From a virus, in IMG/VR virus record IMGVR_UViG_3300023082_000009, positions 1-64,000 of that record: DNA of 64,000 bases; one strand, written 5' to 3'. Below are positions 1,080 through 62,600 of the stretch, in pieces; positions within the stretch are counted from its first letter, which is position 1; every line of letters starts with the position of its first letter. Below the pieces are notes generated by a model that searched no databases, was not told where the DNA came from, and was given only the letters and a program-made list of their open reading frames with translations. A program made the translations under genes and the position numbers.

Positions 1080-2502
1080 TGCAAGCGCCGAAGGCAACCT
1101 CGTCACCGTAGACAAGGCCCAATTCGTAACGCTTGTGAAGAAGCCCGCTAACCAGCGCAGCTTTGGAATTCTTCGATCCGACAGAGAGGACGGCAACGTG
1201 AGCAAACCAGTAGCAGCAACCCGGCGCGTCTCGCGCACCAAGCGCAGCGATAGCAACCAGGATCTGGTTAGCCTCACGCTGCCCGGCACCCTGGACGAAG
1301 CTGCGGCCAAGGACGCCCTGGTCTCCTACGGCCTGAGCAACTTCACCGTGGCCCGCAGTGCTGACGACAGCGCCTGGGTGGCCTCCAACCCGAGTGCAAT
1401 CAATTGCACCGCAGAGCTGACCAGCGTGAACCTCGGCGAAGGTCTGGTTGCCCAGGTCAAGCGCACCGAAGCCACCGCCTCGACCGAGGGTAAGGGCCAG
1501 TTGACGGTCACTTCTCTCGAATTCTCGGGCGAAGCCTTTGCCGACGCGGGTGCCGTGAGCGAATGGTGCCAGCGAAATTCTGTTGACTTCGACGATAAAG
1601 CTCTTAACAATCCGTCTGGCAATCTTGTGTTGCAACGGGCGGAGATCCCGGAGGGTGAGGAAACTCGCCTGATGGAGCTGGAAGATGGCGTGACTGCAAC
1701 GATCATTCGTTCGCAGATCGGCGACATCCCTGACGGCTTCGTCGCGGTGATCAACGAGTATGCGTACTGCGGTTGGGGCTGGGGTCAGTTGGACTTCACC
1801 GCAGCTCTGATGGGTCGGCAGGTAACGGATGCACTGTACGACGGGATCTGGATTCTCGAAGATCTCCTCCGCAACATCCTGTTCTGGTCCGAGCTGACCG
1901 TGGACATCCGCATGGAGCTGACGACTCGGGCTTGCGCCCAGTTCGCCAACTACGCAAACGGGCTGCTCGACAGCCTCCCACGCCAACTTCTGATTTCCGT
2001 TGCAACAACTCAACGCAGTTCTAAGGAGAACGACATGAGCACCACGAAGCAACCCGCAGTAGAAGCCCAACGTACCGAACCAGCCGTGGCTCCTGCCGTG
2101 GTCGCTGTCGGTAGCCCTGAGTTCAACACCGCAGTGGCCGACGCTGTAGCCGCTGAGATCAAACGCCGCGAAGACGCCCAGGCTGAACAAGAAGCCGAAG
2201 AAGTCAAGCGCAAAGAACAGGAAGAGCTGGACAAGGCTTCCCTGGAAGAGCAAGCGAAGATTCGCCGCTCGGAGCTGGAAGAAGTTGTCGGCGCGGCCAC
2301 CAAGCCACTGCTGGAGCAGATCGAAGCACTGAAAGGCACCACCGTCGTGCGTAGCCAGGGCGGCGATCCAGAAGCCAACAAAGAAAACGTTAAGCGCGGT
2401 ACCGGCGACCTGTTCAAAGGCGTGTTCGGTATCACCCGTGCAGACCGCCGTGTCGACGCAGCCGCTGCTGCCGACGCTGACGAAGCTGCCGCAACCAAGT
2501 AA
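1054..2502 (+). CDS. Head scaffolding/maturation protein
   Basis: Lies between protease and capsid; FVTLVKKPAN motif; coiled-coil Ala/Glu-rich C-terminus; likely ATG at 1054. Confidence 0.65.
   Translation: MTSKRIQRSASAEGNLVTVDKAQFVTLVKKPANQRSFGILRSDREDGNVSKPVAATRRVSRTKRSDSNQDLVSLTLPGTLDEAAAKDALVSYGLSNFTVARSADDSAWVASNPSAINCTAELTSVNLGEGLVAQVKRTEATASTEGKGQLTVTSLEFSGEAFADAGAVSEWCQRNSVDFDDKALNNPSGNLVLQRAEIPEGEETRLMELEDGVTATIIRSQIGDIPDGFVAVINEYAYCGWGWGQLDFTAALMGRQVTDALYDGIWILEDLLRNILFWSELTVDIRMELTTRACAQFANYANGLLDSLPRQLLISVATTQRSSKENDMSTTKQPAVEAQRTEPAVAPAVVAVGSPEFNTAVADAVAAEIKRREDAQAEQEAEEVKRKEQEELDKASLEEQAKIRRSELEEVVGAATKPLLEQIEALKGTTVVRSQGGDPEANKENVKRGTGDLFKGVFGITRADRRVDAAAAADADEAAATK
1394..1409. 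repeat. Dispersed palindrome copy (in scaffold CDS)
   Basis: GTGCAATCAATTGCAC. Confidence 0.9.
2035..2502 (+). CDS. Probable in-frame internal-start scaffold product
   Basis: AAGGAGAACGACATG at 2023-2037 is identical to the RBS-start sequence of separate genes at 21819 and 61975. Confidence 0.5.
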   Translation: MSTTKQPAVEAQRTEPAVAPAVVAVGSPEFNTAVADAVAAEIKRREDAQAEQEAEEVKRKEQEELDKASLEEQAKIRRSELEEVVGAATKPLLEQIEALKGTTVVRSQGGDPEANKENVKRGTGDLFKGVFGITRADRRVDAAAAADADEAAATK

Positions 2503-6920: not shown

Positions 6921-6936
6921 ATGCAATCAATTGCAC
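6921..6936. repeat. Dispersed palindrome copy (on a start codon)
   Basis: ATGCAATCAATTGCAC. Confidence 0.9.
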
Positions 6937-13313: not shown

Positions 13314-15866
13314 ATGTCTATCAAACTTTGGCCGTTTCGCCCTGACTGGGAGGCTGGCGTTCTTGAACGGCTGGAGTGGCTCACGGACATGATGGCAAGC
13401 ACGAAAGGGGCGGAGCAGCGCCGCCCCCAACGGCTGACGCCTCGCCGTACCTTTGAGGCCACCTTCCTGCCACACGGTCGCCAACGCTCCGTCTTCGATC
13501 TCCTGGTCATGGAGAAGGGTAACGACGATTGGTACATCCCCTTGTGGTTCGACCACGACGTGCTGCGGGAGGACACCCCTGCGGCGCTGACCGAGCTGTA
13601 CACCGACTACGAAGACCGCGAGTTCACAGCTGGCGGTTTGGCCGTTATCAGGCCCGTCACTTCTGCTGACCATGAACACCACACCTTCACCTACGAACTG
13701 GTGCGCGTGGTCAACAGCAAACAGAACCGCCTCGTCGTGGTCCGTGGCCAGGAAGGTACCGTCGCACGCGATTGGCCACGAGGCTCCGAGATCTACCCAG
13801 TACGGCAGGCCCGCTTCATGGACCAGCCAAACGTCAGCATCGTGTCTGCCAGCATCGTGTCGACCAACATGAAGTTCGTGGTCACCGAGCCCAACGAGTG
13901 GCACGGCGGCAAGCATTATTCGGGCTATGGCGACGCCTACGGGCGCAGCTACGGCAAGTACCGCGACGTTTCCCCGCGTACGCCAGCGAAGAACCTGGGG
14001 ACGGTAGCGTCTCCGTGGTTTATGCCAGCGTTCGAGGGCATCCGGGTGATGAACGCCGAGCCCGACTACAACCAGGACATGAGCTACACCTACGACCGCC
14101 TGCTGAACATCCTGGACAACGAGAACGGCATTCCGAAGTACACCGACAGCCTGGGCTTCGCCACTCCTGCCCAGCAGCACACATGGTTCCTCAATGGCCG
14201 CGCCGAGCAGGCTGCCTACCGGACCATGCTGTACTTCCTGCGCGGCAAGGTGAAACCGGTCTGGCTGCCGACCTTCGCGGACGATGTGCAATTGATTGCA
14301 CCGACCCCGGCTGGCCAGAACTGGATCGACATCAGGAAGATCGGGTACACCGACGGCGGGCGGACCGTGATCAGTCGCCAATGCTTGGCCATCCAGAAGA
14401 ACAACGGAGAGTGGCACTTCGCTCGTATCACCGGCTGCGCCAACGTGGGCGACCACGAGCGCCTGGAGCTGAGCATGCACTTCCTGGAAGACCTCAACCC
14501 GAAGGACATCTACAAGATCTCCTTCATGGCCGTGGCTCGCCTGGACCAGGACGGTATCGAGATCAACCACGTCACCGATAACAAGGGCTTGGCCAAGTCG
14601 GTCATCACCTTCCGGGTGGCGCCGAACATTCGCCAGTACGTTCCCTGGGCGGTAACTTGGCCACCGACCTGGAGAGCGTGCGACCGCACCTGCGCCCAGA
14701 TGCCACGCGTGGAAAACATCGTCGGCTTTGGTCTGCCGAACGAAGACTGGAGCATCGAAGACACGATCACCACCACCCAGTACGCATGGCTGTACTACGC
14801 GCTCTGCTACTCGCAGAAGTACATCAGCACCGAGACGCTGGAGCTGGATGAGCTGCAAGAGTATTTTGCGTGGGCTCTCGGTGGGCCGTTCGGCGGGAGG
14901 CCTTGGGTCTACAACCCGCAGAGCGTGATCAACTCCTTCAACTTCCAGTATTACCTCTGGACCGGGTACAACCGCGCCGCGCAGTTGCAGTTCCTGGGAA
15001 CAGTCCTGCCAGATAAGTTCTTGGAAGAGATCGCGTCCTTCGATGACAAGAAGCTGTACGACTACTACATTCGCCAGCAGATGTACTGGAGCTACCAGAC
15101 TTACATGGAGAGCGGGTGGCAGTGCCAGCACCAGAACGTCAAGCTGCACATCCGCAACTGGCTGCCGTTCAAGCGACTGACCGAGATCCCGCAGTCGTGC
15201 AAGAACAACATGCTCGGCAAGTTCTGCGTGCAGTCCACCTACACGCGGTCCCCTATTGACCGGCACCCTACGAACGCCCGAGGGTCTCACAACGTCTACG
15301 CGGCTGGCCTCATCCACGAGATGTTGAAGCACACCTCGCCAGAGTGGCCACTCGACCAAACCCTGCTGGGTCAGTCCTACAGCCACGCGATCATGCCCTA
15401 TAACGGCAACGGCCTGCACTCGTCCTGCGGCTGCCTAGCGTTGCAGTTTGTAGAGTCGCACAACGGCCTGCGCACGCAGCTGTCTGACCCGAGCGACGAC
15501 AGTCAGCAAAAGGTGCTTTGGTGGCACCGGGCGGAGGCTGCGTGGCTCACCCCGGCTCCTTGGCCTAACCAGATCCGCTTGCTCATGTACGACAGCCTGA
15601 CCGGCTATCTTTTGCGGACCCTGGACATGGACGTGGAGAACTACCCGGTGAGCGGCTATGGCACTGAGTTCGACCGACCTGCGTGGCACACCGAGGACGA
15701 CGAGTTCCCTGAGCCGCAGATCTATAACGCCAACTTGGTTGTATTCCGCAAATCGTATGGCCGGGAAGATTCTCAGACCCTGCTGCACCCCGACCCTTGG
15801 GACAATATCTGGAACGTGGTACCACTCAACTCGAAGGGATTTGTGGTAGAAGTCTACCCACGGTAA
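13314..15866 (+). CDS. Distal tail protein with long C-terminal extension
   Basis: WPFRPDW...ERLEWLTD...EQR motif of siphophage tail-tip proteins following the tape measure. Confidence 0.7.
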   Translation: MSIKLWPFRPDWEAGVLERLEWLTDMMASTKGAEQRRPQRLTPRRTFEATFLPHGRQRSVFDLLVMEKGNDDWYIPLWFDHDVLREDTPAALTELYTDYEDREFTAGGLAVIRPVTSADHEHHTFTYELVRVVNSKQNRLVVVRGQEGTVARDWPRGSEIYPVRQARFMDQPNVSIVSASIVSTNMKFVVTEPNEWHGGKHYSGYGDAYGRSYGKYRDVSPRTPAKNLGTVASPWFMPAFEGIRVMNAEPDYNQDMSYTYDRLLNILDNENGIPKYTDSLGFATPAQQHTWFLNGRAEQAAYRTMLYFLRGKVKPVWLPTFADDVQLIAPTPAGQNWIDIRKIGYTDGGRTVISRQCLAIQKNNGEWHFARITGCANVGDHERLELSMHFLEDLNPKDIYKISFMAVARLDQDGIEINHVTDNKGLAKSVITFRVAPNIRQYVPWAVTWPPTWRACDRTCAQMPRVENIVGFGLPNEDWSIEDTITTTQYAWLYYALCYSQKYISTETLELDELQEYFAWALGGPFGGRPWVYNPQSVINSFNFQYYLWTGYNRAAQLQFLGTVLPDKFLEEIASFDDKKLYDYYIRQQMYWSYQTYMESGWQCQHQNVKLHIRNWLPFKRLTEIPQSCKNNMLGKFCVQSTYTRSPIDRHPTNARGSHNVYAAGLIHEMLKHTSPEWPLDQTLLGQSYSHAIMPYNGNGLHSSCGCLALQFVESHNGLRTQLSDPSDDSQQKVLWWHRAEAAWLTPAPWPNQIRLLMYDSLTGYLLRTLDMDVENYPVSGYGTEFDRPAWHTEDDEFPEPQIYNANLVVFRKSYGREDSQTLLHPDPWDNIWNVVPLNSKGFVVEVYPR
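14286..14301. repeat. Dispersed palindrome copy (in tail CDS, reverse orientation)
   Basis: GTGCAATTGATTGCAC. Confidence 0.9.
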
Positions 15867-21790: not shown

Positions 21791-21806
21791 GTGCAATCAA
21801 TTGCAC
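21791..21806. repeat. Dispersed palindrome copy (intergenic)
   Basis: GTGCAATCAATTGCAC. Confidence 0.9.
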
Positions 21807-25506: not shown

Positions 25507-25522
25507 ATGCAATTGATTGCAC
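25507..25522. repeat. Dispersed palindrome copy (intergenic, reverse)
   Basis: ATGCAATTGATTGCAC. Confidence 0.9.
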
Positions 25523-26970: not shown

Positions 26971-26993
26971 AAGCCCGCCGAGTTGCGGGCTTT
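26971..26993 (+). terminator. Terminator-like hairpin before endolysin
   Basis: AAGCCCGC-CGAGTT-GCGGGCTTT; short U-tract runs into the palindrome. Confidence 0.5.
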
Positions 26994-27007
26994 GCAATTG
27001 ATTGCAT
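26992..27007. repeat. Dispersed palindrome copy (intergenic, reverse)
   Basis: TTGCAATTGATTGCAT. Confidence 0.9.
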
Positions 27008-28714: not shown

Positions 28715-28730
28715 GTGCAATTGATTGCAC
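28715..28730. repeat. Dispersed palindrome copy (just downstream of promoter, reverse)
   Basis: GTGCAATTGATTGCAC. Confidence 0.9.
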
Positions 28731-32121: not shown

Positions 32122-32137
32122 GTGCAATTGATTGCAC
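32122..32137. repeat. Dispersed palindrome copy (abuts RBS, reverse)
   Basis: GTGCAATTGATTGCAC. Confidence 0.9.
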
Positions 32138-34155: not shown

Positions 34156-35511
34156 ATGAAGTACAACCACGGGCACCACACTTTGTCGACCCTGGCAAAG
34201 ACGCTGACCACCAAAGACGACGCTCACTTCATCGCCTACATCGAAGTGATGTCCGTTCTGGGCAAGTTCTGGTCCGCCCGGTTCACCCCCAGCGAGTTCC
34301 TGGTCCTCAGTTTCCTGGCCAATCGCACGCTGATTTTCCGTAAACGGGCGGAGGCAATCACCCGTAGACACTTCGAGGAGGGCATCTCGTCGGAGAGAGG
34401 GGACACCTGCACAGGCTGCGGAGTGAGCGAACACGCCCGAGTCAGGGCTTTAAACTCTTTGTGTTCCCGCAATTTCATCAACGTACACTGCTTTTTGGAA
34501 GGCAAAACAGAGACCAAGCCCCGGATCTACGAGCTGAATTATGAGCTTTTAGTAGAGGGCCACGACCTCGGGGAGATCCGAAACATGCTAAAACGTAGCC
34601 GAACACTCGACCGAGATAAGCGTCCCGAGGACGATTTTTATGCCGAAAATACCCCCCGACAATTCGCGGGGGTACCCCCCGACAATCGTGGAGGCTTAAC
34701 AGAGCTATTACATAGCTCTAAAAGAACTTCTATTAACATAGAAGAGTCGGCAGCTGCGCAGCCGAGCCAATCGAGGTTGAAGGTTGGTAAGAAGACAGTA
34801 GCGGGCGCAATCAATTGCACACCCAAACCTCCGCCTACTGGTAATGCCGCAGAGCGCATCGCGCAGATCCAAGCTGACACTACGAAAGCTCGGACCACCC
34901 GCGTGGCTACTGCAAAGACCCTCCCCGCCCGGCGCTGGGAGATCAAGGATCTACAGGCCCTCCTTGACCAGGGGCGCGCCGACGCGGGCGTCACCGTGCC
35001 TCGCGTTATGGCGACTACCAAAGGGGCGGGTGTGTTGTTCAAGCGGATGAAGGAAGCCGAGATCACCGACGCGCTGGAGTTCTTCACCTGGACCTTCCAG
35101 AACTGGGGCACCGTGGCCTCGGCCAACCGCCGCGCCAAGGCCAAGCAGTTGAAGGACACCAAGGCGTCGAACAGCGAGATGTCCCTGATCCCGAACTTCG
35201 CGGAGCTGGCCTACCGCTTCCCCTACATCCTCGCGTTCTTCAACGACCGCAAGTACACCAAGGTGCAGGAAGAGCAGAAGGTTGTCCGGCAGAAGCAGGA
35301 GACCCGCGCCCTCGCAGAGAAGCAGCAGGTGGCCATTGCTACCCGCCGCGACATCGTGCGCCAGCAGGACATCGAGCAACGCGACAAAGACCGAGCTGCC
35401 CAGGAGCGTCGCGTAGCCCGCCCGGTCGTGCGCCGCAGCCGCCAGCTCGTCGACGACCTGGACGAACCGTTGCCAGCCTACAAAGAAAGGGAGTGGAACC
35501 CAGATGAGTAA
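34156..35511 (+). CDS. Putative replication initiator (N-terminal winged-helix)
   Basis: FTPSEFLVLSFLANRT...AITRRHF...ALNSL pattern; internal direct repeats; upstream of loader-like and helicase genes. Confidence 0.6.
   Translation: MKYNHGHHTLSTLAKTLTTKDDAHFIAYIEVMSVLGKFWSARFTPSEFLVLSFLANRTLIFRKRAEAITRRHFEEGISSERGDTCTGCGVSEHARVRALNSLCSRNFINVHCFLEGKTETKPRIYELNYELLVEGHDLGEIRNMLKRSRTLDRDKRPEDDFYAENTPRQFAGVPPDNRGGLTELLHSSKRTSINIEESAAAQPSQSRLKVGKKTVAGAINCTPKPPPTGNAAERIAQIQADTTKARTTRVATAKTLPARRWEIKDLQALLDQGRADAGVTVPRVMATTKGAGVLFKRMKEAEITDALEFFTWTFQNWGTVASANRRAKAKQLKDTKASNSEMSLIPNFAELAYRFPYILAFFNDRKYTKVQEEQKVVRQKQETRALAEKQQVAIATRRDIVRQQDIEQRDKDRAAQERRVARPVVRRSRQLVDDLDEPLPAYKEREWNPDE
34650..34740. 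repeat. Iteron-like direct repeats plus AT-rich inverted repeat (candidate origin)
   Basis: TACCCCCCGACAAT at 34650 and 34673; AGAGCTA-TTACA-TAGCTCT at 34701-34719. Confidence 0.55.
34805..34820. repeat. Dispersed palindrome copy (in initiator CDS)
   Basis: GCGCAATCAATTGCAC. Confidence 0.85.
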
Positions 35512-40325: not shown

Positions 40326-40781
40326 ATGTCCGAAGAACGCATCATCCGCCGCACACGCACCGTAGCCCGAGGGGTACTCCGCCAGGAGCCTACTCACCTG
40401 GGCGACATCAACCAACGCATGCAATTGATTGCAGAAGCCGAGGCCGAGATCCGCAAGACCCTGGAGGCCATCGAGACAGCCAAGGCCGAAGTGGAAGACC
40501 TCATGAAGGCCGCAAAGCTGACCACCCACGAGCACCTGGGGCTGATCGCGGAGTGGGTCGAGACCAAGACCAACTCGTCTACCGAAGTCAGCGTAGAAGC
40601 GGCTCGCAAGGCGATCAGGAACGACAAGGACTTCTTCTCCGTCCTCAAGGTCCAGATGGGTCCGCTGGGCAAGGTGCTGTCCGAGAACGAGATCAAGGCC
40701 ATCGCCAAGGTCACGCCCGGTCAGGTCACCGGCAAGAAGTTCCAGATCATGCAACCGAAAAAGAAGGCAGGCAAAAAATGA
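40326..40781 (+). CDS. Hypothetical protein
   Basis: AGGAG RBS; coiled coil; IIRRTR N-terminus. Confidence 0.7.
   Translation: MSEERIIRRTRTVARGVLRQEPTHLGDINQRMQLIAEAEAEIRKTLEAIETAKAEVEDLMKAAKLTTHEHLGLIAEWVETKTNSSTEVSVEAARKAIRNDKDFFSVLKVQMGPLGKVLSENEIKAIAKVTPGQVTGKKFQIMQPKKKAGKK
40419..40434. repeat. Dispersed palindrome copy (in CDS, reverse)
   Basis: ATGCAATTGATTGCAG. Confidence 0.9.
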
Positions 40782-43978: not shown

Positions 43979-45667
43979 ATGCGCCCGGCTATCCTTGCGG
44001 GCGCTATGAAGCTCCCTCTCGATAGTATCGACGCCCCTGCCGTAAAGAAGCTGACCACCTACAAGCATCGCCCCCTGGGCCTTGCCGACGGTGAGCCAGA
44101 TCTGGAGGTCGAGGCTTGGTACTACGAGGGGGATTTTCTTTGCGTGCCCCGCCAGCTCGGGATCACGCTGTGCAATCAGTTGCACATCGAGATCGAAGAT
44201 CAGACCAGTGATGGGTTCCCTGCCGTCTTCCCTTGCATCCCCGATCCCAGGGTGTACCAGGAGCCGCAGATCGACCAGATCGTGGAAACCTTCGACAGCT
44301 TTTACGACTTCATCTTCCGTGCCCATACCGGGTGGGGTAAGACCGTGGGCTCCCTCATTGCCGCAGCGCGGATGGGGCGGACCACCATTGTCATCGTTGA
44401 CCAGGACAACCTCCGGGAGCAGTGGGAGGAGTGCCTGATCAAGTTGTTCGGCTTCAAGCCCGAGGAGATCGGGATCATCCAGGGGCCGGAGAAGAAGTGG
44501 CGCTGGAAGGGACTGGCCGTAACCATCGCTATGGTGCAGACCCTCAGCCAGAAGGGCGTGTCGGAGGAGATGGCGGAATACTACGGTACTGCCATCGTCG
44601 ACGAGGTACACACCGCTGGCGCCCCGACGTTCTCCGCCTCCCTGGTCATGTTCAGCGCCGGTCGACGCCTGGGCGTGTCTGCTACTCCTGGTCGCCGTGA
44701 TGGCCTCCAGCGCGCCCTGGACCACAACCTGGGCAAGATCCGCGTGGCAGCCGACAAGGAGCACGACCGCTCCGCCGTCTACGTGATCCGTCACGAGACC
44801 GTCTACAGCTTCTACGGCAACGTGTCCAAGATGACCGGGCGGATCTTCTCCGAGGTCGAGGAGGATGGCCCGCGTAACATGACGATCATGGAGGCAGCTC
44901 TCTGGCTGTACGAGTCGGGGCGGGACGTGCTGATCCTCTCGGACCGTATCGAGCAGCTGCGGGAGCTGATGAGCATCGGCTATTACCTGGGGGTGCCCGA
45001 GGAGGAGATGGGCCTGTATACTGGCCACGACCCCCAGTGGATCTTCGGCAAAGACCCGAAGCCTACCAAGAGACCTGATGACCTGCACCGATGGAAAGAC
45101 GACCGAGGCCGCTTCGTGTACGCGGAGTACAGCGCGGTCGGTTTGCAGCTCGTGAGGAAACGAATTCCTAAAGCCACACTCAAACAGGTCAAAGAAAGAT
45201 GCACGATGATGTTTGCTACATACGGGATGTGCTCAAAGGGCTTCGACAAACCCAGCCTCACGGGCGGCATCGACGCTACACCTAGAAGCACGGCAGAACA
45301 GATTCACGGTCGGATTCTCCGAGGGGAAGACGGCAGGCCAATACCGATCTGGGTAACCATCGCCGACGTGAACAGCTACCGACTGATGTATTCGTTCGGT
45401 AGTCGGGTGAAGGAGTATCTCAAAAGCAATGGTGTCCTCTTTGAGTGGCACCCAGACGGGAGTGTTGAACCATGCGACGTGACAGACCTAAAGGCAGAGA
45501 TCTACGACCGGGTAACCGAGCTGAAATCTATGCAGATCCAAACCAACAGCGACGGGCTAAATATTCTGCTGACGGCCAAGGACGCGCAGAGAAACAAGCG
45601 GACAGCCGAGCGCGCTATAATGCAAAAGTTCCAAAGACCGCCAGCCCGCCTGCCCCGCCATCAGTGA
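43979..45667 (+). CDS. Superfamily 2 DNA helicase
   Basis: AHTGWGKT, DEVH, SATP, QIHGRILR. Confidence 0.9.
   Translation: MRPAILAGAMKLPLDSIDAPAVKKLTTYKHRPLGLADGEPDLEVEAWYYEGDFLCVPRQLGITLCNQLHIEIEDQTSDGFPAVFPCIPDPRVYQEPQIDQIVETFDSFYDFIFRAHTGWGKTVGSLIAAARMGRTTIVIVDQDNLREQWEECLIKLFGFKPEEIGIIQGPEKKWRWKGLAVTIAMVQTLSQKGVSEEMAEYYGTAIVDEVHTAGAPTFSASLVMFSAGRRLGVSATPGRRDGLQRALDHNLGKIRVAADKEHDRSAVYVIRHETVYSFYGNVSKMTGRIFSEVEEDGPRNMTIMEAALWLYESGRDVLILSDRIEQLRELMSIGYYLGVPEEEMGLYTGHDPQWIFGKDPKPTKRPDDLHRWKDDRGRFVYAEYSAVGLQLVRKRIPKATLKQVKERCTMMFATYGMCSKGFDKPSLTGGIDATPRSTAEQIHGRILRGEDGRPIPIWVTIADVNSYRLMYSFGSRVKEYLKSNGVLFEWHPDGSVEPCDVTDLKAEIYDRVTELKSMQIQTNSDGLNILLTAKDAQRNKRTAERAIMQKFQRPPARLPRHQ
44170..44185. 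repeat. Dispersed palindrome copy (in helicase CDS)
   Basis: GTGCAATCAGTTGCAC. Confidence 0.85.
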
Positions 45668-49445: not shown

Positions 49446-49461
49446 ATGCAATTGATTGCAC
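49446..49461. repeat. Dispersed palindrome copy (upstream of promoter, reverse)
   Basis: ATGCAATTGATTGCAC. Confidence 0.9.
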
Positions 49462-49569: not shown

Positions 49570-51063
49570 ATGGCAAACACCAAAGCTAAATCCGCTCCGG
49601 TTGAGGAAGCGGCTGCCGACATCGAAGTCGGTTCCAATGTCACCTTCCTCGGCTACGATGCCGACACCCCCGAAGCCGAACGCATCCTCGAAGCTGGCGA
49701 GCGTTACGAAGTAATCGAACTGCCCGGCACCACCGAGATCGACGGCGAAGTTGTCGAAACCGGTTACGTTCTGCGCCTGCCGAACCCTGACTTCAACAAG
49801 AAGAAAAAGGTTCACGCCGAAACCAACCCTGAATTCCTGGAAACCGAAGTCTTCGCCGAAGAGATCGAACTCTACGTTGAAGGCGACGATGCGGGTGCCG
49901 AAGGTGGCGAAGCTGCCGACGCGGGCGCTGATGCCCCAGGCGATGATGACCCTCTGACCTACGAAGAGCTGGCCGGTTACGACAAAGCCCAGCTGCTCGA
50001 ATTCGCAGAAGTCAACGAAGTCAAGCTGACCGCAGCTGACAAGAAAACCGACAAGGCGCTCCTGGCCAAGCTGGCTGCCGTCTACGAGCTGAGCCCTGCC
50101 GAGCCTGCCCCTACCAAGGCACCGGCCAAACCAGCAGCCAAAACTGCCGCAGCCAAGCCTGCCGCCGAAGCGCCTGCTGCCAAGCCTGAAACCGCCGCAG
50201 CCAAGAAAAAGCGTGAAGCTGCCGAAGCCGCGCAGAAGACCGCAGCCGCTGCCAAGAACAAAGGCGTGAACAAGTCGCCCGAAGGCGAAGTCGATCCTGA
50301 CGAAGTGCCGGACCTGGACAACGAAGACGATGCCGTTCTGGCGTTGATCGACGGTGACGTGGATCTGGTCGAAGTAGCCCAGGAACTGGAATCGGCGGTG
50401 GCCGTGTCCGAGTACCAACTCGGCGGCGTGCTGTACCACATCAAAAAAGAAAAAGTGCATCTGGCCGTCGACAAGAAGGGCAAGCTGCTCAACCCTGAAT
50501 ACGGCGAAACGGGCGGCTTCAAGCTGTTCCTCCAGGAGAACTTCAACCTGGACTACCGCAAGGCCACCTACCTGATCGACATCTACATCAACTTCACCCA
50601 GGCCGGTATCGAAAACCCGTCCGAAGTTGTTGGCCGTATCGGCTGGACCAAGGCAAGCAAGATCGCCAAGCCGCTGGGCCTGCCTGACGCTGACGTAGAA
50701 GGCCTGATCCAGGCTGCCGAGAACAACACCGTTCAAGACCTGTCTACCATCATCAAAGATGAATTCACGGTCGGCGGCGGTGAGGGCGCCAGCAAAGGCT
50801 CCGAAGGTACCAAGGTCAATCGCCTGACCCTGCGCTTCCGCTTCGTTGAAGAAGAAGCCAACGTGGTCGAGGACATCCTCAAGGAAGCCGCTGAGAAACT
50901 CGGCGTCAAAGAAGATGAAGCCTTGTTCCAGATCCTGACCGAGTATCACGCACAAGCCCTGACCGGCGACGCTGATGCCCAGGACGTGGAAGACACTGCC
51001 AAGGCAGCGGCCAACGCCAAGCCAGCTACACGCGGTAAGCCTCGTGGCGCAGCTCGTGCCTAA
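49570..51063 (+). CDS. Acidic protein with AKP-rich linker, putative DNA-binding/organising protein
   Basis: Own promoter and terminator; strongly biased codons; GF...YRKA...IGWTKA C-terminal domain. Confidence 0.7.
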   Translation: MANTKAKSAPVEEAAADIEVGSNVTFLGYDADTPEAERILEAGERYEVIELPGTTEIDGEVVETGYVLRLPNPDFNKKKKVHAETNPEFLETEVFAEEIELYVEGDDAGAEGGEAADAGADAPGDDDPLTYEELAGYDKAQLLEFAEVNEVKLTAADKKTDKALLAKLAAVYELSPAEPAPTKAPAKPAAKTAAAKPAAEAPAAKPETAAAKKKREAAEAAQKTAAAAKNKGVNKSPEGEVDPDEVPDLDNEDDAVLALIDGDVDLVEVAQELESAVAVSEYQLGGVLYHIKKEKVHLAVDKKGKLLNPEYGETGGFKLFLQENFNLDYRKATYLIDIYINFTQAGIENPSEVVGRIGWTKASKIAKPLGLPDADVEGLIQAAENNTVQDLSTIIKDEFTVGGGEGASKGSEGTKVNRLTLRFRFVEEEANVVEDILKEAAEKLGVKEDEALFQILTEYHAQALTGDADAQDVEDTAKAAANAKPATRGKPRGAARA

Positions 51064-51131: not shown

Positions 51132-51893
51132 ATGCCAACTCCAATTCGCCCAGGTCGTAAGTCGGTGAACGTGACCCGACCAGAGAAGGGCAGTACCCCG
51201 GCACGCCCGTCGCGCCCTGCGCCACGGCCAAAGCCAACCGACATGTCCAAGGTCAAACTGCGCCTTGAGTACGTGGACATCAATGACATCCAGCCCTACG
51301 AATGGAACGCACGCGACAACGCCAAGGCTGTGACTGCCGTGGCCAACTCGATCAGAGCGTTCGGCTTTGTCGTGCCCGTAGTGATCGACGCCAACGGCGT
51401 GCTGGGCGCTGGCCACACTCGTGTCGAAGCAGCCAAGACCCTGGGAATGCTGGAGGTTCCTGCGGTGCGGGCGGAGCACTTGACCAAGGAACAGATGGAC
51501 GCCTTCCGTATCGCCGATAACAAGGTGGCGGAGATGGCAACCTGGAATACCTCGATGCTGGCGGATGAGATGGACAAGCTGACCGGCCTGTTCGACTTCA
51601 CCGACTTCGGTTTCGGCCAGGGCGAGATCGACTGCCTTGCGTCCCTGGTAGGCGACGACTGCCTGTCTACTGCCAACCTGGGCGCCCTCACCGGTACCGC
51701 AGCAGGCGAAGAGACTCCAGGCCGCAGCGTTCGCCGTGCGCCGCTCCAGGCCCGCATCGTGATCGGTGAGCTGACCTTCTTTGTCCCCGCCGAGCAGTAC
51801 CGTAACTGGGTGCAGGGTCTGCGCGATCTGCACGACTTCAAAGACGAAGACATTGCGGCTGATCTGAAACGCCGCCTGGGGTTCCACGAATGA
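51132..51893 (+). CDS. ParB/Srx N-terminal domain protein
   Basis: PYEWNAR, SIRAFGFVVPVVID, AGHTR, RIADNK. Confidence 0.88.
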   Translation: MPTPIRPGRKSVNVTRPEKGSTPARPSRPAPRPKPTDMSKVKLRLEYVDINDIQPYEWNARDNAKAVTAVANSIRAFGFVVPVVIDANGVLGAGHTRVEAAKTLGMLEVPAVRAEHLTKEQMDAFRIADNKVAEMATWNTSMLADEMDKLTGLFDFTDFGFGQGEIDCLASLVGDDCLSTANLGALTGTAAGEETPGRSVRRAPLQARIVIGELTFFVPAEQYRNWVQGLRDLHDFKDEDIAADLKRRLGFHE

Positions 51894-52486
51894 AATACCT
51901 CCCTTGGATTGTTTGCTCCATCATCGCCCTGGCCTACCCCTTCGCCGGGTACCTGCCAGCCCTCGTACCTGGGACGGACTGGGGCCTCGTAGGCGTCCTG
52001 GCTGCACCGCTCCGGCATGCGACCCTTCTACACCTCGCGGTGAATCTGTTACCCTTGGCCTACCTCCTCAGCCTGATGCGCAACGACCCGCCTGCCCGTG
52101 TGATCATGGGCCTGCTGACCATCGTTGTAGTGGGAGGTATGTGGGTGTGGTTCTGGGGTCGACTCGGTATCCACGAAGGGGCAAGCGGCCTCACCCTCGG
52201 CGTGCTGGCAATGCTGGCGATGCGCACTGACTACCGATCCGTACTATCCGTTGCAGCCCTGGTGGGCACCGGCATCGCCCTTGAGTATGTGAACATACCC
52301 GAGGCGTCCTGGGAGACCCACCTGGGTGGCTTCGTGGCTGGAGCCTACTACGGGATCATCACACTGAACTGGAAGAGCAAGCGGGAGATGGACCATGACG
52401 ACGAATCGAGTAGTGCGCAGGCTACGCCATGCCCGGCCAAGTGCCGAAGTGACAGCCGACCACATTACCCTGGTCCCGGTCGATAA
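51890..52486 (+). CDS. Rhomboid-family intramembrane serine protease
   Basis: H-x4-HL-x2-N, GASG and HLGG catalytic motifs; multiple TM segments. Confidence 0.8.
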   Translation: MKYLPWIVCSIIALAYPFAGYLPALVPGTDWGLVGVLAAPLRHATLLHLAVNLLPLAYLLSLMRNDPPARVIMGLLTIVVVGGMWVWFWGRLGIHEGASGLTLGVLAMLAMRTDYRSVLSVAALVGTGIALEYVNIPEASWETHLGGFVAGAYYGIITLNWKSKREMDHDDESSSAQATPCPAKCRSDSRPHYPGPGR

Positions 52487-53951
52487 GCTGACCCCCGACA
52501 ATAAGAACCCCCGCAAGGCGGACCAAGCCCGGTCCGCTCTGCTGCTCCTCTCGCTCAAGAAGTTGAGCTTCCTCATGCCGCTGTTCCGTCAAAGGTCCAG
52601 CGGCTTGTTGCTGTCTGGCCACCAGCGCCTCACCCAGTCGAAGATCCTGGGCCTGGATGCGGTGCCGGTGGTAGACGTGGATGTCGAGGACAGCGAGGTG
52701 ATGAACATCAACCTCCTGTTCAACCGACTGACCAACGACTTCAACGCGTTCGACACGGGAGCCCAGGTCCAGGAGCGCCTGGACATGAAGCAGGTGCTTG
52801 CGCTGCTGGAGGCCCTACCGGACGCCGAGGGTCACTACGCCCTGGGCTGCACCGTGGAACCGATCCGGCAGTTCGCTCGGGCGGTGGGTGATCAGTACGA
52901 CAAGAAGGCCGCAGTCACAGCCGGTGCCTTTACCCGTATGAATATCCGCATCCCTCTCGTCGTCAGCGAGTCCGGCAAGGTGGTCAATGGCGTCAACCGG
53001 ATGTTCGCCGCGCTCGACCGTGGTATCGAAGAGTGGCCGGTAGTCCGGGTGCCCGACGACATCGCCGAGGTTGCAGCCGTGGTGCTGAACTACCTGTCCA
53101 TGGACTTCTCCGTCGACGACGATTTCAAGAACCTGCTGCGCTCCTCTGCGTTCCGCCGCGTGTCGAACAACCGGGGCACCGTAGGCAAGACCTACCGCTT
53201 CTGGGCCAACGGCTGCCGCTCGCTCCTGGATCGCGACAGCTACTCGCCGGAGTATTGGTCGAACTTCCGCCAGCTGCACGGCAACTCGATCCTGGACTTC
53301 GGGGCGGGCCTCGGGAAGGTGGCGCCCTACCTCCTGACCAAGGGCTTCGACGCTCACGACTTCGAGCCGTACCGCGTAGACCCAGACATGAATGCCGCCG
53401 AGCCCTCGCGCACCTACAGCAGGGAGCAGGCCAAGCGATTCCTCAAGGCCATCGAGAACCCCGAGCAGCGCTTCGACAGCATCTTCATGTCTGCCGTGAT
53501 GAACTCGATCCCGTTCCCGGAAGACCGGCTCATGGTGCTGGCGATTGTCCATGCGCTGTGTGCCCGTGAAACCGTGGTCTACGGAACCTGCCGCGACATG
53601 TCCGACTTTGACTACGAGTACGGCGGCGTGCGCAACGGCAACTACTTCGTCTGGGATACCGAGCCGGGCGTTCGCCTGGGCGACGTGTCGAGCTGCCCCA
53701 AGCTCCAGAAGTTCATGACCCAGGAAGAGGCTCGCGGGTACTTCGAGCGCTTCTGGACCACTATCGAGTTCTGGAAGGGTGGCAACGTGTTCTACTTCAA
53801 GCTCTCCGATCCGAAGGGCGTGAACATCAAGGCCCTGGGCCAGTCGCTAGACTTCGAGTTCAACCTGCCGTTTCGGGACGGCAAGGGCTTGGATCTGGTC
53901 AAGGAAGCCAAGGCTGCATTCAGCAAGCGTCTGCGGAGGCAAGTTCCATGA
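52395..53951 (+). CDS. Tandem ParB-like domains fused to a class I SAM-dependent methyltransferase fold
   Basis: NPRK...LLSGHQR; second PLVV...VNGVNR; ILDFGAG...DFEPY...FMSAVMNSIP. Confidence 0.8.
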   Translation: MTTNRVVRRLRHARPSAEVTADHITLVPVDKLTPDNKNPRKADQARSALLLLSLKKLSFLMPLFRQRSSGLLLSGHQRLTQSKILGLDAVPVVDVDVEDSEVMNINLLFNRLTNDFNAFDTGAQVQERLDMKQVLALLEALPDAEGHYALGCTVEPIRQFARAVGDQYDKKAAVTAGAFTRMNIRIPLVVSESGKVVNGVNRMFAALDRGIEEWPVVRVPDDIAEVAAVVLNYLSMDFSVDDDFKNLLRSSAFRRVSNNRGTVGKTYRFWANGCRSLLDRDSYSPEYWSNFRQLHGNSILDFGAGLGKVAPYLLTKGFDAHDFEPYRVDPDMNAAEPSRTYSREQAKRFLKAIENPEQRFDSIFMSAVMNSIPFPEDRLMVLAIVHALCARETVVYGTCRDMSDFDYEYGGVRNGNYFVWDTEPGVRLGDVSSCPKLQKFMTQEEARGYFERFWTTIEFWKGGNVFYFKLSDPKGVNIKALGQSLDFEFNLPFRDGKGLDLVKEAKAAFSKRLRRQVP

Positions 53952-54220
53952 AACACATCACCGATGGGTATCAGCCAGTGAGTGCAGGGCGCGTGGGCGC
54001 TGCCCCTCCAAAGGAGCGCTTCGACCCACCTCCTACTACCGAGGAACGGCGCGTCACCAAGACCCAGTTACAGGCCGAGCTGCGTAACGAGATCCTCGAA
54101 GAGCTGGCTGTGCTGCGGCGCATCATCAAGGGCCGAACTCTGGGCGCCGATGTATGCCTGGACAAGCACGAGGCAGAGTCCCTGGCCGACCGTCTACAGA
54201 GTTGGGCCGGTCGCGTCTAA
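53948..54220 (+). CDS. Hypothetical protein
   Basis: GGAGG RBS; ATGA coupling. Confidence 0.6.
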   Translation: MKHITDGYQPVSAGRVGAAPPKERFDPPPTTEERRVTKTQLQAELRNEILEELAVLRRIIKGRTLGADVCLDKHEAESLADRLQSWAGRV

Positions 54221-54224
54221 TCGA

Positions 54225-54240
54225 ATGCAATCAATTGCAC
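54225..54240. repeat. Dispersed palindrome copy (abuts RBS of CmoA-like gene)
   Basis: ATGCAATCAATTGCAC. Confidence 0.9.
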
Positions 54241-54250
54241 GGAGTACACC

Positions 54251-54961
54251 ATGAACAGTCCCGCACACTTCCCGGCCAACCCTTCCCGCTTCGTCTTCGA
54301 CGCGTCGGTGGCAGCCATCTTCGATGACATGGCCGACCGCTCGATCCCACTCTTCCGGGAGGCGCACCGCAACAACGTCAAGCTGGCGGAGCCCTGGCTG
54401 GCGAGCGATCCCCAGGTGCTGGACGTGGGCGCGTCCCGTGGTGCGTTCCTGCTGGAGCTGGATCGCCTATACGGCATCGACAACTTTGACGTGCGCGCCA
54501 CCGACATCAGCCCGGAGATGGTGGCCTACATGCGGGAGGACTTCCCCTCGGTGCAGGTCGACCAGCTGGACATCACCACCAGCGCGTTCCTCAACTGCTC
54601 CCACACGTACGACGTGATCAACTTCACCTACGTACTCCAGTTCATCCCGAAGGAGCTGCAACGCATTGTGCTGGCCAAGGTGTGCGCCATGGTCAAGCCG
54701 GGCGGTGTGCTCTTTATCGGCCAGAAGAACAAGGACGACAGCCCCGCAGGCCAGATGCTCCACAAGCAGTACATCAAATGGCGCATGGACAATGGCTACA
54801 CCCAGGAAGAGATCGACGCCAAGACGAAGGCACTTGCTGGTAGCATGTGGCCCACTGATGAGGCTATGCTCATCGGAGATCTCAAAGGCGCCGGGATGGT
54901 CGAGGTGGTACGCACCTGCTCCTGGGGTCCATTCAGCAACCTGATGTGCATCAAGCGATAA
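54251..54961 (+). CDS. CmoA-like protein (carboxy-SAM synthase family)
   Basis: FVFD-x2-VA-x2-FDDM-x2-RSIP, LDVGAS-x-G, DIS-x2-M, VLQF, NGYT-x2-EI-x2-K, all following the CmoA pattern. Confidence 0.8.
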   Translation: MNSPAHFPANPSRFVFDASVAAIFDDMADRSIPLFREAHRNNVKLAEPWLASDPQVLDVGASRGAFLLELDRLYGIDNFDVRATDISPEMVAYMREDFPSVQVDQLDITTSAFLNCSHTYDVINFTYVLQFIPKELQRIVLAKVCAMVKPGGVLFIGQKNKDDSPAGQMLHKQYIKWRMDNGYTQEEIDAKTKALAGSMWPTDEAMLIGDLKGAGMVEVVRTCSWGPFSNLMCIKR

Positions 54962-54971
54962 GGAGACGGAC

Positions 54972-55760
54972 ATGCCCACGAATAACGAACGCCCTGGCGA
55001 ACGCCGCGTCATCATGCGCCGGAGTCGTGGGCAGATGCCTTTCAGCAGTGCAGGCCGGGTGGACGGTACCCCTCGGGAAGCCCCGGTGATCGACGACGAT
55101 ATTGACGACGCCATCGACCCTGACCAGATCGACGACCACGTACGCCAGCAGACCCGACGCCCTGCCCCAGGCCCGAGCCGTGGCGACGCGCCAGAGCGCA
55201 ACCCTGCCCAGATGCTTATGGACGTGGATGAGTCCGGCAGCGCCGCCTACAGCAAGGAATACCGCATGGTGCTGCTGCACAAGATGCTGGCGCGGAAGAT
55301 GCCCCTGCACGAGATCGCCCGGCACCTGCGCGTATCCATCTCCACCATCGAGAAGGACCGGGTGCGGTTGAAGGCCTGGATGCGCGAGCAGGCCAAGGAG
55401 ATGAACATCGACGAGATGATCGGCAGCCAAGTCGCTCTCTACGATGAGCTGACCGCCATGTCGTTGCGCATCGCCTCGAAGACCTCCGGCGAGGGTGCCG
55501 TGCCCGTGGCCATGCAGCTGGCCGCCATGCGTACCACCCTGGCAGCCAACGCTGACAAGACCCGGTTCCTCGGCGCCGCTGGTGTACTCGATGTGCTGCG
55601 CTTCCGTAAGGGCGATACCGGTGAAGCACAATCTGACATCCAGATCGTCATGGAGCGGACTGCCCGCATGCTCGCTGCCCTGGCAGAGGACGGCGGCGGC
55701 ATGGAGAACTTCGGCGACTTCTCCATCAACGATGTGGAACCTGAAAGCGAGGAACTGTGA
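54972..55760 (+). CDS. Terminase small subunit (putative, HTH)
   Basis: EIARHLRVSISTIEKD HTH; coupled to the large subunit. Confidence 0.65.
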   Translation: MPTNNERPGERRVIMRRSRGQMPFSSAGRVDGTPREAPVIDDDIDDAIDPDQIDDHVRQQTRRPAPGPSRGDAPERNPAQMLMDVDESGSAAYSKEYRMVLLHKMLARKMPLHEIARHLRVSISTIEKDRVRLKAWMREQAKEMNIDEMIGSQVALYDELTAMSLRIASKTSGEGAVPVAMQLAAMRTTLAANADKTRFLGAAGVLDVLRFRKGDTGEAQSDIQIVMERTARMLAALAEDGGGMENFGDFSINDVEPESEEL

Positions 55761-57667
55761 TGGCCGTTCAACGTAGAAGCGCCATGCGCAAGCAGCTGGT
55801 TATCCAGGAGGTCGAGCTGATCGCCGACGGCTTGGCCAACAAGCAGTTCTCCGAGATGTACCGGCACGCAGTCCTCTGCGCCATGAACGGCGACACCCGG
55901 CTGTTCGACTTCATGTCGGTCCTGGACCGCGTGCCCGTGAGCATCGAAGACTTCATCGACAGCCCTGAGTTCCTGGGCAGCACTGACCTTGAGATGTGGC
56001 CAGAGGTTCGCCGGGCGGTCATCGAAGAGAACAAGGACTGGTGGAAGGGCCTAGAAGGCGGAGCACGGGATACCTGCTGCCTCATGGGGTGCACCCGTAG
56101 CGGCAAGTCGACCCAGGCAATCATCGGTACCCTGTACGACTTCTACATCCTCACCTGCATGCAGAACCCGCAGAAGTGGTACGGCCTGCCCTCGGCTACC
56201 TCCATCGTGTTCCCGATCATTGGCGCGAAGCCACACGTAACGAAGAAGGTTGTGTATGCCCCGATGCGGAAGTGGATCGAGCGCATGCCCTACTTCCAGG
56301 CCTGGGCACAGCCCGACAAGAACATCGACAGCGAGATGCTGTTCACCGAGAAGAACTTGCGGATCACGCCCGTCGGCGGTAGCGAGGATGCGATCCTGGG
56401 TGAGGCGACCATCGGTGGCATCATCGACGAGATCAACTTCATGAACGTGGTGCAGAAGTCGAAGAAGGCCGAGGTGTCCACCGGGCGGTCCGGCGTCTAC
56501 GATCAGGCAGCGCAGATCTTCGATACGTTCAGCCGCCGTCGCCGTGGTACGTTCGCCAAACGCTTCCCGCAGATCGGCAAGATCTTCGCGGTGTCGTCCA
56601 CTCGGTACCGGGGCGACTTCACCGACAAGCTCAAGGCCGACGTGATCAAGCACGACATGAAGAACGTCTACATCTTCGACAAGAAGCAGTACGAGGTTCA
56701 GCCTGCATCCAACTACTGCGGCCAGACCTTCCGCCTTCTGATCGGTAACGATGTGCAGCACGAGACCCGCGTGCTCCGGGACGACGAGGAAGTGATCGAA
56801 GGCGCCTGGGTGGAGAACGTGCCTATCGAATGCCTCCAGGACTTCCAGCGTAAGCCGTACGACGCGCTGCGGGACATCCTGGGCCTGTCGTCCAACGTGA
56901 TCAGCCCGTTCATCAAATCGCGCCACAAGGTCTACGAGTGCGTGGAGGCTGGCCGGGAGGTTGGGCTGGAGTCCTTCCTCATCCGCGACCACGTTATCCT
57001 GGGCGAGCACGGGATGCCGCAGGTCAAGCATGCCCACTATTGCAAGAACCCATCGCGCCCTCGCTATGTTCACATCGACTTGTCGCAAACGGGTGACCGG
57101 TGTGGGATCGCGATGATCCGATTCGATGGCATGATGCACCTACAGCGGAGTGGTGACTTGACCGAGCTGCTGCCCACCGGGGCGGTAGAGATGGCTTGCT
57201 CCATTCAGCCGGATGCAAACAACGAGATCGACATCGCCGAGGTACGGGCCTTCGTCAAGAACCTGAGCCGGTTGTATGGCTACCCCATCAAGGGCGTGTC
57301 CTATGACGGCTTCGATAGTCGCGAGTCTATCCAGGCGTGGCGCAAGGATCGGATGCCTACCAAGATCATCTCGATGGACCGCACGAGCGCACCCTACAAG
57401 CAGTTCCGGGACGCGCTGTACGACCGTCGGATTGGTCTGCTCGATGACGCGGACGTGACCAGCGAGATCCTTGAACTGGAGTACGACGAGTCGAAGGACA
57501 AGGTAGACCACACCATCGTCGGCAAGAAGGACGTGGCGGATGCGATCTGCGGTGCGTACACCAACATGCTGGAGCGCCGGAGCACCTGGGAAGGCGTGGA
57601 TGAATCCCTGGCCGAGTCTGGCCGATACGATGGCGAGCGGTTCGGGGACGAACCACGCCCACACTAG
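55757..57667 (+). CDS. Terminase large subunit
   Basis: GCTRSGKS Walker A, IIDEINF Walker B, HIDL...D, YDGF, KVDH...KDVADA nuclease motifs. Confidence 0.9.
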   Translation: MMAVQRRSAMRKQLVIQEVELIADGLANKQFSEMYRHAVLCAMNGDTRLFDFMSVLDRVPVSIEDFIDSPEFLGSTDLEMWPEVRRAVIEENKDWWKGLEGGARDTCCLMGCTRSGKSTQAIIGTLYDFYILTCMQNPQKWYGLPSATSIVFPIIGAKPHVTKKVVYAPMRKWIERMPYFQAWAQPDKNIDSEMLFTEKNLRITPVGGSEDAILGEATIGGIIDEINFMNVVQKSKKAEVSTGRSGVYDQAAQIFDTFSRRRRGTFAKRFPQIGKIFAVSSTRYRGDFTDKLKADVIKHDMKNVYIFDKKQYEVQPASNYCGQTFRLLIGNDVQHETRVLRDDEEVIEGAWVENVPIECLQDFQRKPYDALRDILGLSSNVISPFIKSRHKVYECVEAGREVGLESFLIRDHVILGEHGMPQVKHAHYCKNPSRPRYVHIDLSQTGDRCGIAMIRFDGMMHLQRSGDLTELLPTGAVEMACSIQPDANNEIDIAEVRAFVKNLSRLYGYPIKGVSYDGFDSRESIQAWRKDRMPTKIISMDRTSAPYKQFRDALYDRRIGLLDDADVTSEILELEYDESKDKVDHTIVGKKDVADAICGAYTNMLERRSTWEGVDESLAESGRYDGERFGDEPRPH

Positions 57668-60483: not shown

Positions 60484-60499
60484 GTGCAATCAACTGCAC
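60484..60499. repeat. Dispersed palindrome copy (before dcd RBS)
   Basis: GTGCAATCAACTGCAC. Confidence 0.85.
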
Positions 60500-62584: not shown

Positions 62585-62600
62585 GTGCAACTAATTGCAC
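62585..62600. repeat. Dispersed palindrome copy (between terminator and RBS)
   Basis: GTGCAACTAATTGCAC. Confidence 0.8.

Follow-up and report, generated by a model that had tools for sequence, protein, structure and literature searches.

The 64-kb stretch of DNA analysed here (the window; positions 1 to 64,000 of the IMG/VR virus record IMGVR_UViG_3300023082_000009), which covers the initial 64 kb of a phage genome of 94,879 bp, contains one short palindrome in many evenly spaced copies. From comparisons with related genomes we conclude that these palindromes, arranged as a lattice over the whole genome, are sites in double-stranded DNA that serve a symmetric protein dimer. The explanation that we favour, with somewhat better than even confidence, is that the protein encoded at 49570-51063 (the candidate reader) recognizes the palindromes as a ParB/KorB-type helix-turn-helix (HTH) dimer, nucleating a system similar to KorB-OB or Noc-NBS and autoregulating its own gene. 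The occurrence of 20 to 50 evenly spaced, co-evolving palindromes, which are kept even in essential genes, across cultured and uncultured proteobacterial phages points to a genome-wide DNA-protein system.

A lattice of palindromes in phage genomes

When the window was searched for TGCAATNNATTGCA with at most one mismatch, 16 sites were found compared with 0.04 expected, and none of 100 shuffles reached this number. The whole 94.9-kb genome carries 27 copies. The palindrome of this phage takes the form (G)TGCAAT-YR-ATTGCA(C), and copies centred on CA or TG represent one site read on opposite strands. The flanks widen the site to 16 bp, as a 5' G is present in 13 and a 3' C in 22 of the 25 exact TGCAA-N4-TTGCA copies. 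A preliminary description of this DNA had noted 16-bp palindromes every few kilobases, and these are real and enriched. The copy that it placed at 54225, inside a cluster of genes for ParB-like and transferase-like proteins, was found at 54226-54239, between the stop codon of a 90-amino-acid open reading frame (ORF; 54220) and the start of a CmoA-like gene (54251).

About 16 of the 27 copies (∼60%) were judged to be intergenic or at gene boundaries, and the remainder are located inside long genes. Often a copy takes up all of the space from a stop codon to the ribosome-binding site that follows. According to the RefSeq gene table of Pseudomonas phage SM1, 16 of its 30 sites are intergenic, 3 coincide with or adjoin a start codon and 11 are intragenic; many start 1-2 bases past a stop codon. 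The gaps between the sites of the window phage are more even than expected by chance, with a coefficient of variation (CV) of 0.58 versus ∼0.95 (p 0.001) and a largest gap of 7.5 kb versus an expected 13.7 kb. Eight genomes were tested for gap regularity, yielding CVs of 0.42-0.70 against ∼0.95, with p ≤0.004 in seven of them and 0.048 in RcZahn. Given the even gaps and the internal copies in long genes, the constraint on the lattice looks like coverage of the whole genome rather than control of particular promoters.

The genome of the window phage has a GC content of ∼0.61 and contains long ORFs with high third-position GC, mostly on the plus strand; ∼10% of it is non-coding. Among deposited genomes, those of the Pseudomonas phages SM1 and PaMx31 (Samunavirus, 93 kb) are closest to it, with ∼72% similarity at the DNA level (one gene) and 50-68% at the protein level. 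For comparison we used the genomes of SM1, DLP5 (host Stenotrophomonas), RHph_I4 (Rhizobium), RcZahn (Rhodobacter), HJ05 (Aeromonas), SIO-2 (Vibrio), and Evaa (Gordonia), together with the IMG/VR genomes G006, G007, G011, G014, and G015.

The core TGCAA-N4-TTGCA is common to a wide clade of 80-110 kb siphophages and to many uncultured contigs. Exact copies of this core were counted in DLP5 (31), RHph_I4 (45), HJ05 (16), and RcZahn (9), exact copies of TGCAAT-NN-ATTGCA in G006 (47), G007 (39), and G011 (31), and SIO-2 has ∼26 degenerate copies. SM1 carries 30 copies of the variant TGCAA-RCGY-TTGCA(C), many of them positionally orthologous to sites of the window phage, among them the sites that precede the CmoA-like, dCTP deaminase, and endolysin genes and one in a start codon as ATG-CAA; at these orthologous places the inner letters of the two phages are not the same. 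Both the outer and the inner positions of the site are palindromic and genome-specific, and a core letter sometimes differs between genomes as well. In genomes with T/A or R/Y as the inner pair, the centre is invariably a pyrimidine-purine step (CA/TG, CG, or TA); in RHph_I4 the centre varies freely. It is because of these palindromic, genome-specific positions, and because variant copies do not display the compensatory pattern of an RNA hairpin, that we interpret the palindromes as putative dimer sites in double-stranded DNA.

Four other interpretations were dropped. A search with the exact motif was blank in SM1, which then seemed to have the gene cluster without the motif, until the variant was found at orthologous places. 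A promoter function was rejected: many sites are wedged directly between the stop codon before them and the Shine-Dalgarno sequence after them, where a promoter would not fit, and the offset to recognizable -10/-35 boxes varies. A start codon within 40 nt downstream is not a general rule, the enrichment being weak or absent in G006 and G007. A restriction site (CAATTG) is lost in the variants of SM1 and RHph_I4. We found no description of such a motif or palindrome lattice in the literature, including the papers on SIO-2, L338C, DLP3, and DLP5.

Bacterial genome contigs scanned for the site mostly gave single matches, which is approximately the chance level, and only two of them (L319 and L286) share proteins with the phage. 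One bacterial or metagenome-assembled contig (L326) contains 11 copies of GTGCAAT-YR-ATTGCAC in 8 kb, and several others (L245, L322, and L341 among them) contain 4 per 8 kb. These dense contigs share no BLAST-detectable protein with this phage and may be other elements that use the same site, or may belong to distant relatives as early regions in which the sites are dense.

Beyond the window, the lattice reaches its highest density at 72226-75806, a region of small genes with five copies in 3.6 kb, two of which directly abut stop codons and one of which precedes a terminator-like hairpin. The site embedded in a gene start reads ATG-CAA-(TCA-ATT / ACG-CTT)-GCA-CCG and is present at 6920-6935 of the window and at 3839-3853 and 80845-80859 of SM1. 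The encoded peptide shifts with the motif variant of the genome, from MQSIAP here to MQTLAP in SM1.

The candidate reader encoded at 49570-51063

Iterated profile searches over nine lattice genomes yielded a short list of core genes, three of which encode proteins that could bind DNA: a stand-alone ParB N-domain protein (P0001), the candidate reader, whose gene (49570-51063) lies immediately upstream of that of P0001, and a small HTH_17 protein (45664-45990). Among 50,697 deposited phages, the family of the candidate reader is limited to the lattice clade; it occurs in each of the nine lattice genomes from proteobacterial phages and not in Evaa. The protein consists of an N-terminal domain, an acidic stretch, an Ala/Lys/Pro-rich linker, a predicted ParB/KorB-like HTH domain (RKAxYLIxIY and GWTK), a ribbon-helix-helix, and a basic tail. 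The putative reading residues R, K, G, W, and K are invariant in the family, as is the DNA core. That a separate specificity factor might be needed had been foreseen in the preliminary description, and this conserved neighbor of the cluster, with its modelled ParB/KorB-like DNA-binding fold, is the best candidate for it.

To describe the fold, the conserved C-terminal half was modelled with AlphaFold2 (43 sequences, predicted local distance difference test score 84). The best VIA-align match of this model is the ParB DNA-binding domain on parS (6s6h; Z 6.9 over 102 residues, 2.9 Å), followed by Spo0J, KorB (twice), SopB (twice), and VirB with Z of 4.1-5.2, so that 7 of the 12 top matches are ParB-family DNA-binding domains. 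The C-terminal segment matches ribbon-helix-helix antitoxins (Z 3.1-3.6), and Atlas gave weak DUF3102 and ParB-HTH leads for the family.

The relation between reader and site was analyzed in 63 further IMG/VR loci with a FastTree phylogeny. Just after the HTH lies a motif, GWxK, which is otherwise invariant and whose x residue tracks the half-site. GWTK pairs with TGCAAT in most loci, GWAK with TGAAAT in nine of nine, and GWWK with TGCAGG, while GWSK pairs with TGCAAC (HJ05, RHph_I4, and two contigs) or TGCAAR (SM1) in five of the six GWSK loci or genomes with a determined half-site. On the tree, 8 residue changes and 12 half-site changes were counted, and 5-6 of the residue changes were judged to be coincident with a half-site change. 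In ∼38 of 66 loci, which cover all deep branches and include lineages with variant motifs, the genome's own site variant is located 0-120 nt upstream of the reader gene, a position expected from site density in ∼5% of loci; shared ancestry inflates the observed count.

Several results weigh against the protein encoded at 49570-51063 as the reader. Pfam and PDB sequence searches with the family returned only low-complexity matches and no ParB/KorB DNA-binding domain, Foldseek found no match to the model, and a Z of 6.9 falls in the range that helical models reach by chance. Because the Z score is modest for a helical model and Foldseek was blank, the assignment of a ParB/KorB-like DNA-binding fold is suggestive rather than firm. 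The covariation of residue and half-site is not significant after phylogenetic control (four independent pairs on supported branches; sign test p 0.25-0.5), SIO-2 is an exception in combining GWSK with T/A sites, and several half-site changes occurred without a change in GWxK. The site upstream of the reader gene may in part be inherited synteny, and the HTH_17 protein is a second conserved HTH protein. The homologue of the reader in phage DLP3, gp62, is not listed in the published mass-spectrometry table of the DLP3 virion, which therefore lends no support to a packaged protein.

According to the mechanism that we propose, the reader would bind the palindrome as a dimer through its ParB/KorB-type HTH domain, the GWxK element would help to set the specificity for the half-site, and the ribbon-helix-helix and lysine-rich tails would be further parts of the same protein. 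Bound at evenly spaced palindromes, it would nucleate a nucleoprotein system that regulates or organizes the whole phage chromosome, and it would autoregulate its own gene. For KorB, loading at the operators is followed by sliding over as much as 1.5 kb (PMC11790492), a distance that suits the lattice spacing of 2-3.5 kb. Phage DLP5, which is temperate, persists and replicates in a phagemid state (PMC5834331). A reasonable output of the lattice would therefore be to silence or to maintain a prophage kept as an episome.

Dispersed copies of one palindrome across a replicon are found here as in systems of the KorB/OB or Noc/NBS type. As with KorB-OB of the IncP plasmid RK2 (PMC11790492), one short palindrome is dispersed over the replicon, at promoters and away from them, the spacing is compatible with sliding over ∼1.5 kb, and the reader model matches the KorB DNA-binding domain (1r71 and 8qa8; Z 5.1 and 4.7). 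However, KorB unites a CTPase N-domain, a DNA-binding domain, and a dimerization domain in one chain, whereas here the N-domain is on a separate protein; KorB works with KorA and IncC (a ParA), whereas no ParA is present here; and KorB has no sequence similarity to the reader. The lattice comprises 27-54 even sites, many of them intragenic, versus 12 OB sites. Noc-NBS of Bacillus subtilis and ParB-parS share with the lattice palindromes of 14-16 bp and, if the reader model is right, a ParB-type reading domain; the dispersed sites of Noc number in the dozens. The fold of P0001 matches the N-domains of Noc and ParB, and the best match of the reader is the ParB-parS complex. In contrast to these systems, the phage has its N-domain on one protein and the candidate DNA-binding domain on another, the GERR box deviates, and no ParA was found. 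Furthermore, parS sites cluster near the origin, whereas the lattice sites are even genome-wide, with one copy upstream of the candidate DNA-binding gene. As ParA is lacking and the N- and DNA-binding domains are split, membership in the ParABS systems (type Ia) fails on two tested features. If the reader is a ParB/KorB-fold protein without an NTPase domain of its own, it would represent a natural "split" ParB clamp to study, which might help to explain why ParB domains accompany phage DNA-modification enzymes.

Alternatively, the palindromes might be operators of another regulator, either the HTH_17 protein or an early-region repressor, that serve in global silencing in a plasmid-prophage state or in the timing of expression, a possibility that we consider unlikely. 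The stoperators of Cluster A mycobacteriophages and the conserved inverted repeats of phiC31 are short sites present in tens of copies across the genome, mostly in short intergenic gaps. Stoperators are asymmetric, oriented with transcription, and read by immunity repressors of another fold, and their specificity differs from one genome to another and evolves together with the protein that binds them. The lattice likewise comprises tens of copies whose specificity differs by genome, as in immunity groups, and sites lie at gene junctions and near promoters. The temperate life and phagemid replication of DLP5 (PMC5834331) would also suit such operators, and the HTH_17 protein is conserved in eight of nine genomes examined (it was not found in RcZahn). 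However, the recognition helix of this protein varies widely among genomes with the same half-site, and no repressor-type gene was identified here. Unlike stoperators, the lattice sites are palindromic and unoriented, with 11 CA and 11 TG centres by orientation on the coding strand. Even spacing and copies inside genes are features of the lattice and not hallmarks of stoperators, and many sites inside operons or genes leave no room for a promoter.

ParB N-domain proteins, the transferase pair, and the terminase block

Three ParB-like domains had been reported in the cluster next to the candidate reader gene. Two of them, AGHTR in P0001 and SGHQR in P0002, were borne out by PHROG, hhalign, and model evidence, while NGVNR in P0002 is tentative. 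P0001 matches Pfam ParB_N with an E-value of 4e-4, which is under the curated cutoff, and PHROG 620 with 2.6e-46, and its AlphaFold model matched the N-domains of ParB, Noc, KorB, and PadC in Foldseek. The first domain of P0002 reached a Pfam E-value of 3.3e-4 and an hhalign probability of 94.8% to the P0001 family, and profile searches against the PDB also agree with the N-domain calls. The second unit of P0002 gave a weak partial match (hhalign probability 28.9%, E 6e-4, 42 columns). The boxes of P0001 read AGHTR and DNK versus GERRxRA and ENxxR in ParB; the NPR and final arginine positions are kept, whereas His-Thr replaces the Glu-Arg of ParB CTPases. With the glutamate and the first arginine of GERR replaced, CTPase clamp chemistry is uncertain.

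The preliminary description was also right in seeing no HTH in the ParB-like proteins, as none is present in the AlphaFold model of P0001 and none was detected in P0002 by Pfam, and in seeing no ParA: a motif scan of all ORFs of the 94.9-kb genome detected no deviant Walker A (KGGxGK[ST]). P-loops are limited to the DnaB, RecA-like, PhoH, AAA+, and large terminase subunit (TerL) proteins.

The transferase part of P0002 matches only Methyltransf_23/12 and generic S-adenosylmethionine (SAM) methyltransferases, and no scanned ORF of the cluster matched a C5-methyltransferase family. The CmoA-like protein matches TIGR00740 with an E-value of 1.1e-28 and 100.5 bits, below the 193-bit cutoff. A phage CmoA-like gene beside a SAM-fold transferase resembles the CmoA-CmoX 5-carboxymethylcytosine system (PMC12783734), near which ParB-domain proteins have been reported (PMC12783734). 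CmoX, however, is a homologue of C5-cytosine methyltransferases, whereas P0002 joins ParB_N units to a class I fold of the small-molecule type, and the CmoA-like protein falls short of the equivalog cutoff.

A ParB_N protein followed by a protein of ∼200-260 amino acids and TerL is a conserved block in G006, G007, DLP5, and RcZahn. In the window phage and SM1, P0002 and the CmoA-like gene sit within this ParB_N-terminase block, and on the basis of the sequences they appear to be an accessory DNA-modification pair inserted into it. The neighborhood with the terminase and the synteny of ParB_N, the small terminase subunit (TerS), and TerL, which extends to Evaa, suggest a packaging-linked role of P0001.

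We next asked whether the lattice depends on the transferase genes. Full-length homologues of P0002 are present only in the window phage, SM1-like phages, G011, G014, G015, HJ05, and Evaa, and its methyltransferase part co-occurs strictly with the CmoA-like gene (window phage, SM1, HJ05, and Evaa). Co-occurrence of motif and cluster had been set beforehand as the refuting test of the transferase link, and it breaks down in both directions. G006, G007, DLP5, RHph_I4, RcZahn, and SIO-2 have a lattice of 9-54 sites (19-54 at one mismatch) without the P0002/CmoA-like pair, while Evaa has ParB_N, P0002, the methyltransferase, and the terminase but no enriched palindrome. Because of these six genomes and of Evaa, the lattice is independent of the transferase. 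The description of the palindromes as parS-like therefore holds in kind, as putative dimer sites that are closest to KorB-OB and Noc-NBS, but not in its link to the transferase. The pair may nevertheless use the lattice, although the lattice does not depend on the pair, and the separable transferase genes and lattice are best treated as two systems, whether or not they interact.

These distributions bear on the proposal that P0001 and P0002 themselves load at the palindromes as nucleoside triphosphate-dependent clamps, slide, and carry the methyltransferase-fold domain along, so that phage DNA is modified and host DNA spared. Three ParB_N-like units are encoded beside the candidate reader gene, and the spacing of 2-3.5 kb fits a clamp that slides ∼1.5 kb like KorB (PMC11790492). 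The association of ParB domains with DNA-modifying enzymes of phages is frequent but unexplained (PMC12783734), and in relatives variable modification-type genes adjoin the ParB_N-terminase block; DNA of DLP3 and DLP5 has been reported to be resistant to most restriction enzymes. However, the mismatch between lattice and pair in the genomes named above, the lack of a DNA-binding domain in P0001, its altered GERR box, and the packaging-linked synteny that includes Evaa all speak against such clamps. In addition, we know of no precedent for a clamp that is split over two polypeptides. Taken together, we consider loading and sliding of P0001 and P0002 to be improbable.

A related idea, to which we give an equally low probability, is that the lattice serves in self-marking: the reader would recruit the ParB N-domain proteins via N-domain engagement and, in phages with P0002 and the CmoA-like gene, a carboxy-SAM-dependent transferase would be delivered processively and to phage DNA only. 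This proposal presumes that host DNA is devoid of evenly spaced palindromes. If true, it would account in general terms for the many cases in which a ParB domain is fused to a phage DNA-modifying enzyme or encoded next to one.

The stretch upstream of the ParB_N-TerS-TerL block (window 51132-57667) looks like a swappable DNA-modification island. The same place is occupied by P0002 and the CmoA-like gene in the window phage, SM1, and HJ05, by epimerase, aminotransferase, methyltransferase, and glycosyltransferase genes in DLP5 (L142 1-7683), and by a Polysacc_synt_2 dehydratase gene in G006 (L120 14923-19362). The genes of DLP5 and G006 are of the sugar-modification type. The rhomboid-like gene between the two ParB genes is lacking in SM1, and DLP3 has a rhomboid-family gene (gp93). 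The translations of P0001, P0002, TerS, and a ligase begin with Arg-rich stretches (window 28784-60243).

RNA and host-factor alternatives, and feature coordinates

Two further explanations of the palindromes appear very unlikely to us. In the first, the element would act in RNA, where a short hairpin just 5' of ribosome-binding sites would govern translation or the processing or stability of the mRNA. All genes are on one strand, and 9-25 nt downstream of ∼40% of the copies there is a start codon preceded by a Shine-Dalgarno sequence. However, the would-be loop positions are kept palindromic (T/A, C/G), as are the genome-specific outer flanks, the variant copies lack compensatory pairing, and the stem would measure only 5 bp. 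In addition, sites with a downstream start codon are no more common in G006 and G007 than random positions, and copies inside genes occur in several frames. With the same low probability, binding of a conserved host factor such as a LacI/CytR-like regulator could be considered, as the consensus TGNAANCGNTTNCA presumably resembles LacI-family operators, the core is constant over phages of alpha- and gammaproteobacterial hosts, and the same 16-mer recurs in some bacterial contigs, but close relatives differ in specificity (TGAAAT, TGCAGG, TGCAAC, TGCAAR), the half-site variants track a residue of a phage protein, and the hosts span very different regulons.

The coordinates of the palindromes in the window and of the genes discussed are compiled in Table 1.

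Table 1. Palindrome copies in the window and genes of the candidate reader, the transferase cluster, and the terminase block.
Feature	Position	Strand	Remarks
Palindrome	1395..1408		intragenic
Palindrome	6922..6935		written into gene start (ATG-CAA-TCA-ATT-GCA); SM1 variant site at equivalent place
Palindrome	12045..12058		within tape-measure gene
Palindrome	14287..14300		intragenic
Palindrome	21792..21805		intergenic
Palindrome	25508..25521		intergenic
Palindrome	26993..27006		intergenic, 3' of terminator-like hairpin
Palindrome	28716..28729		intergenic; AT-rich promoter-like stretch before, AAA+ gene after
Palindrome	32123..32136		intergenic
Palindrome	34806..34819		1 mismatch, intragenic
Palindrome	40420..40433		intragenic
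Palindrome	44171..44184		1 mismatch, within SF2 helicase gene
HTH_17/MerR-like protein, ∼108 amino acids	45664..45990	+	rival reader
Palindrome	49447..49460		just upstream of candidate reader gene; precedes sigma-70-like TTGAAT-17 bp-TACTAT
Candidate site reader	49570..51063	+	ORF opens at 49528; start at 49570 implied by 497-amino-acid database entry
P0001	51132..51893	+	stand-alone ParB N-domain (AGHTR) with small C-terminal beta-beta-alpha-alpha domain; ORF opens at 51114
Rhomboid-like membrane protein	51890..52486	+	between the two ParB genes
P0002	52395..53951	+	ParB_N (SGHQR), degenerate second ParB-like unit (NGVNR), class I SAM-methyltransferase fold; PHROG 5475
90-amino-acid ORF	53948..54220	+	no family match; no homologue in compared genomes
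Palindrome	54226..54239		fills spacer between 90-amino-acid ORF and CmoA-like gene; positionally orthologous variant in SM1 upstream of its CmoA-like gene
CmoA-like SAM-dependent enzyme	54251..54961	+	candidate carboxy-SAM synthase; PHROG 4752
262-amino-acid protein	54972..55760	+	weak HTH; small-terminase position
TerL	55757..57667	+	PHROG 9; matches 251 phage records, many annotated terminase
Palindrome	60485..60498		1 mismatch, intergenic, before dCTP-deaminase homologue; orthologous site in SM1
Palindrome	62586..62599		1 mismatch, intergenic, 3' of terminator-like hairpin

A further core gene of the clade, located between the helicase and a RecA-like gene (window 45944-46387), encodes a protein of 147 amino acids without a family match, in which TxNLGNYES...LPC is conserved.

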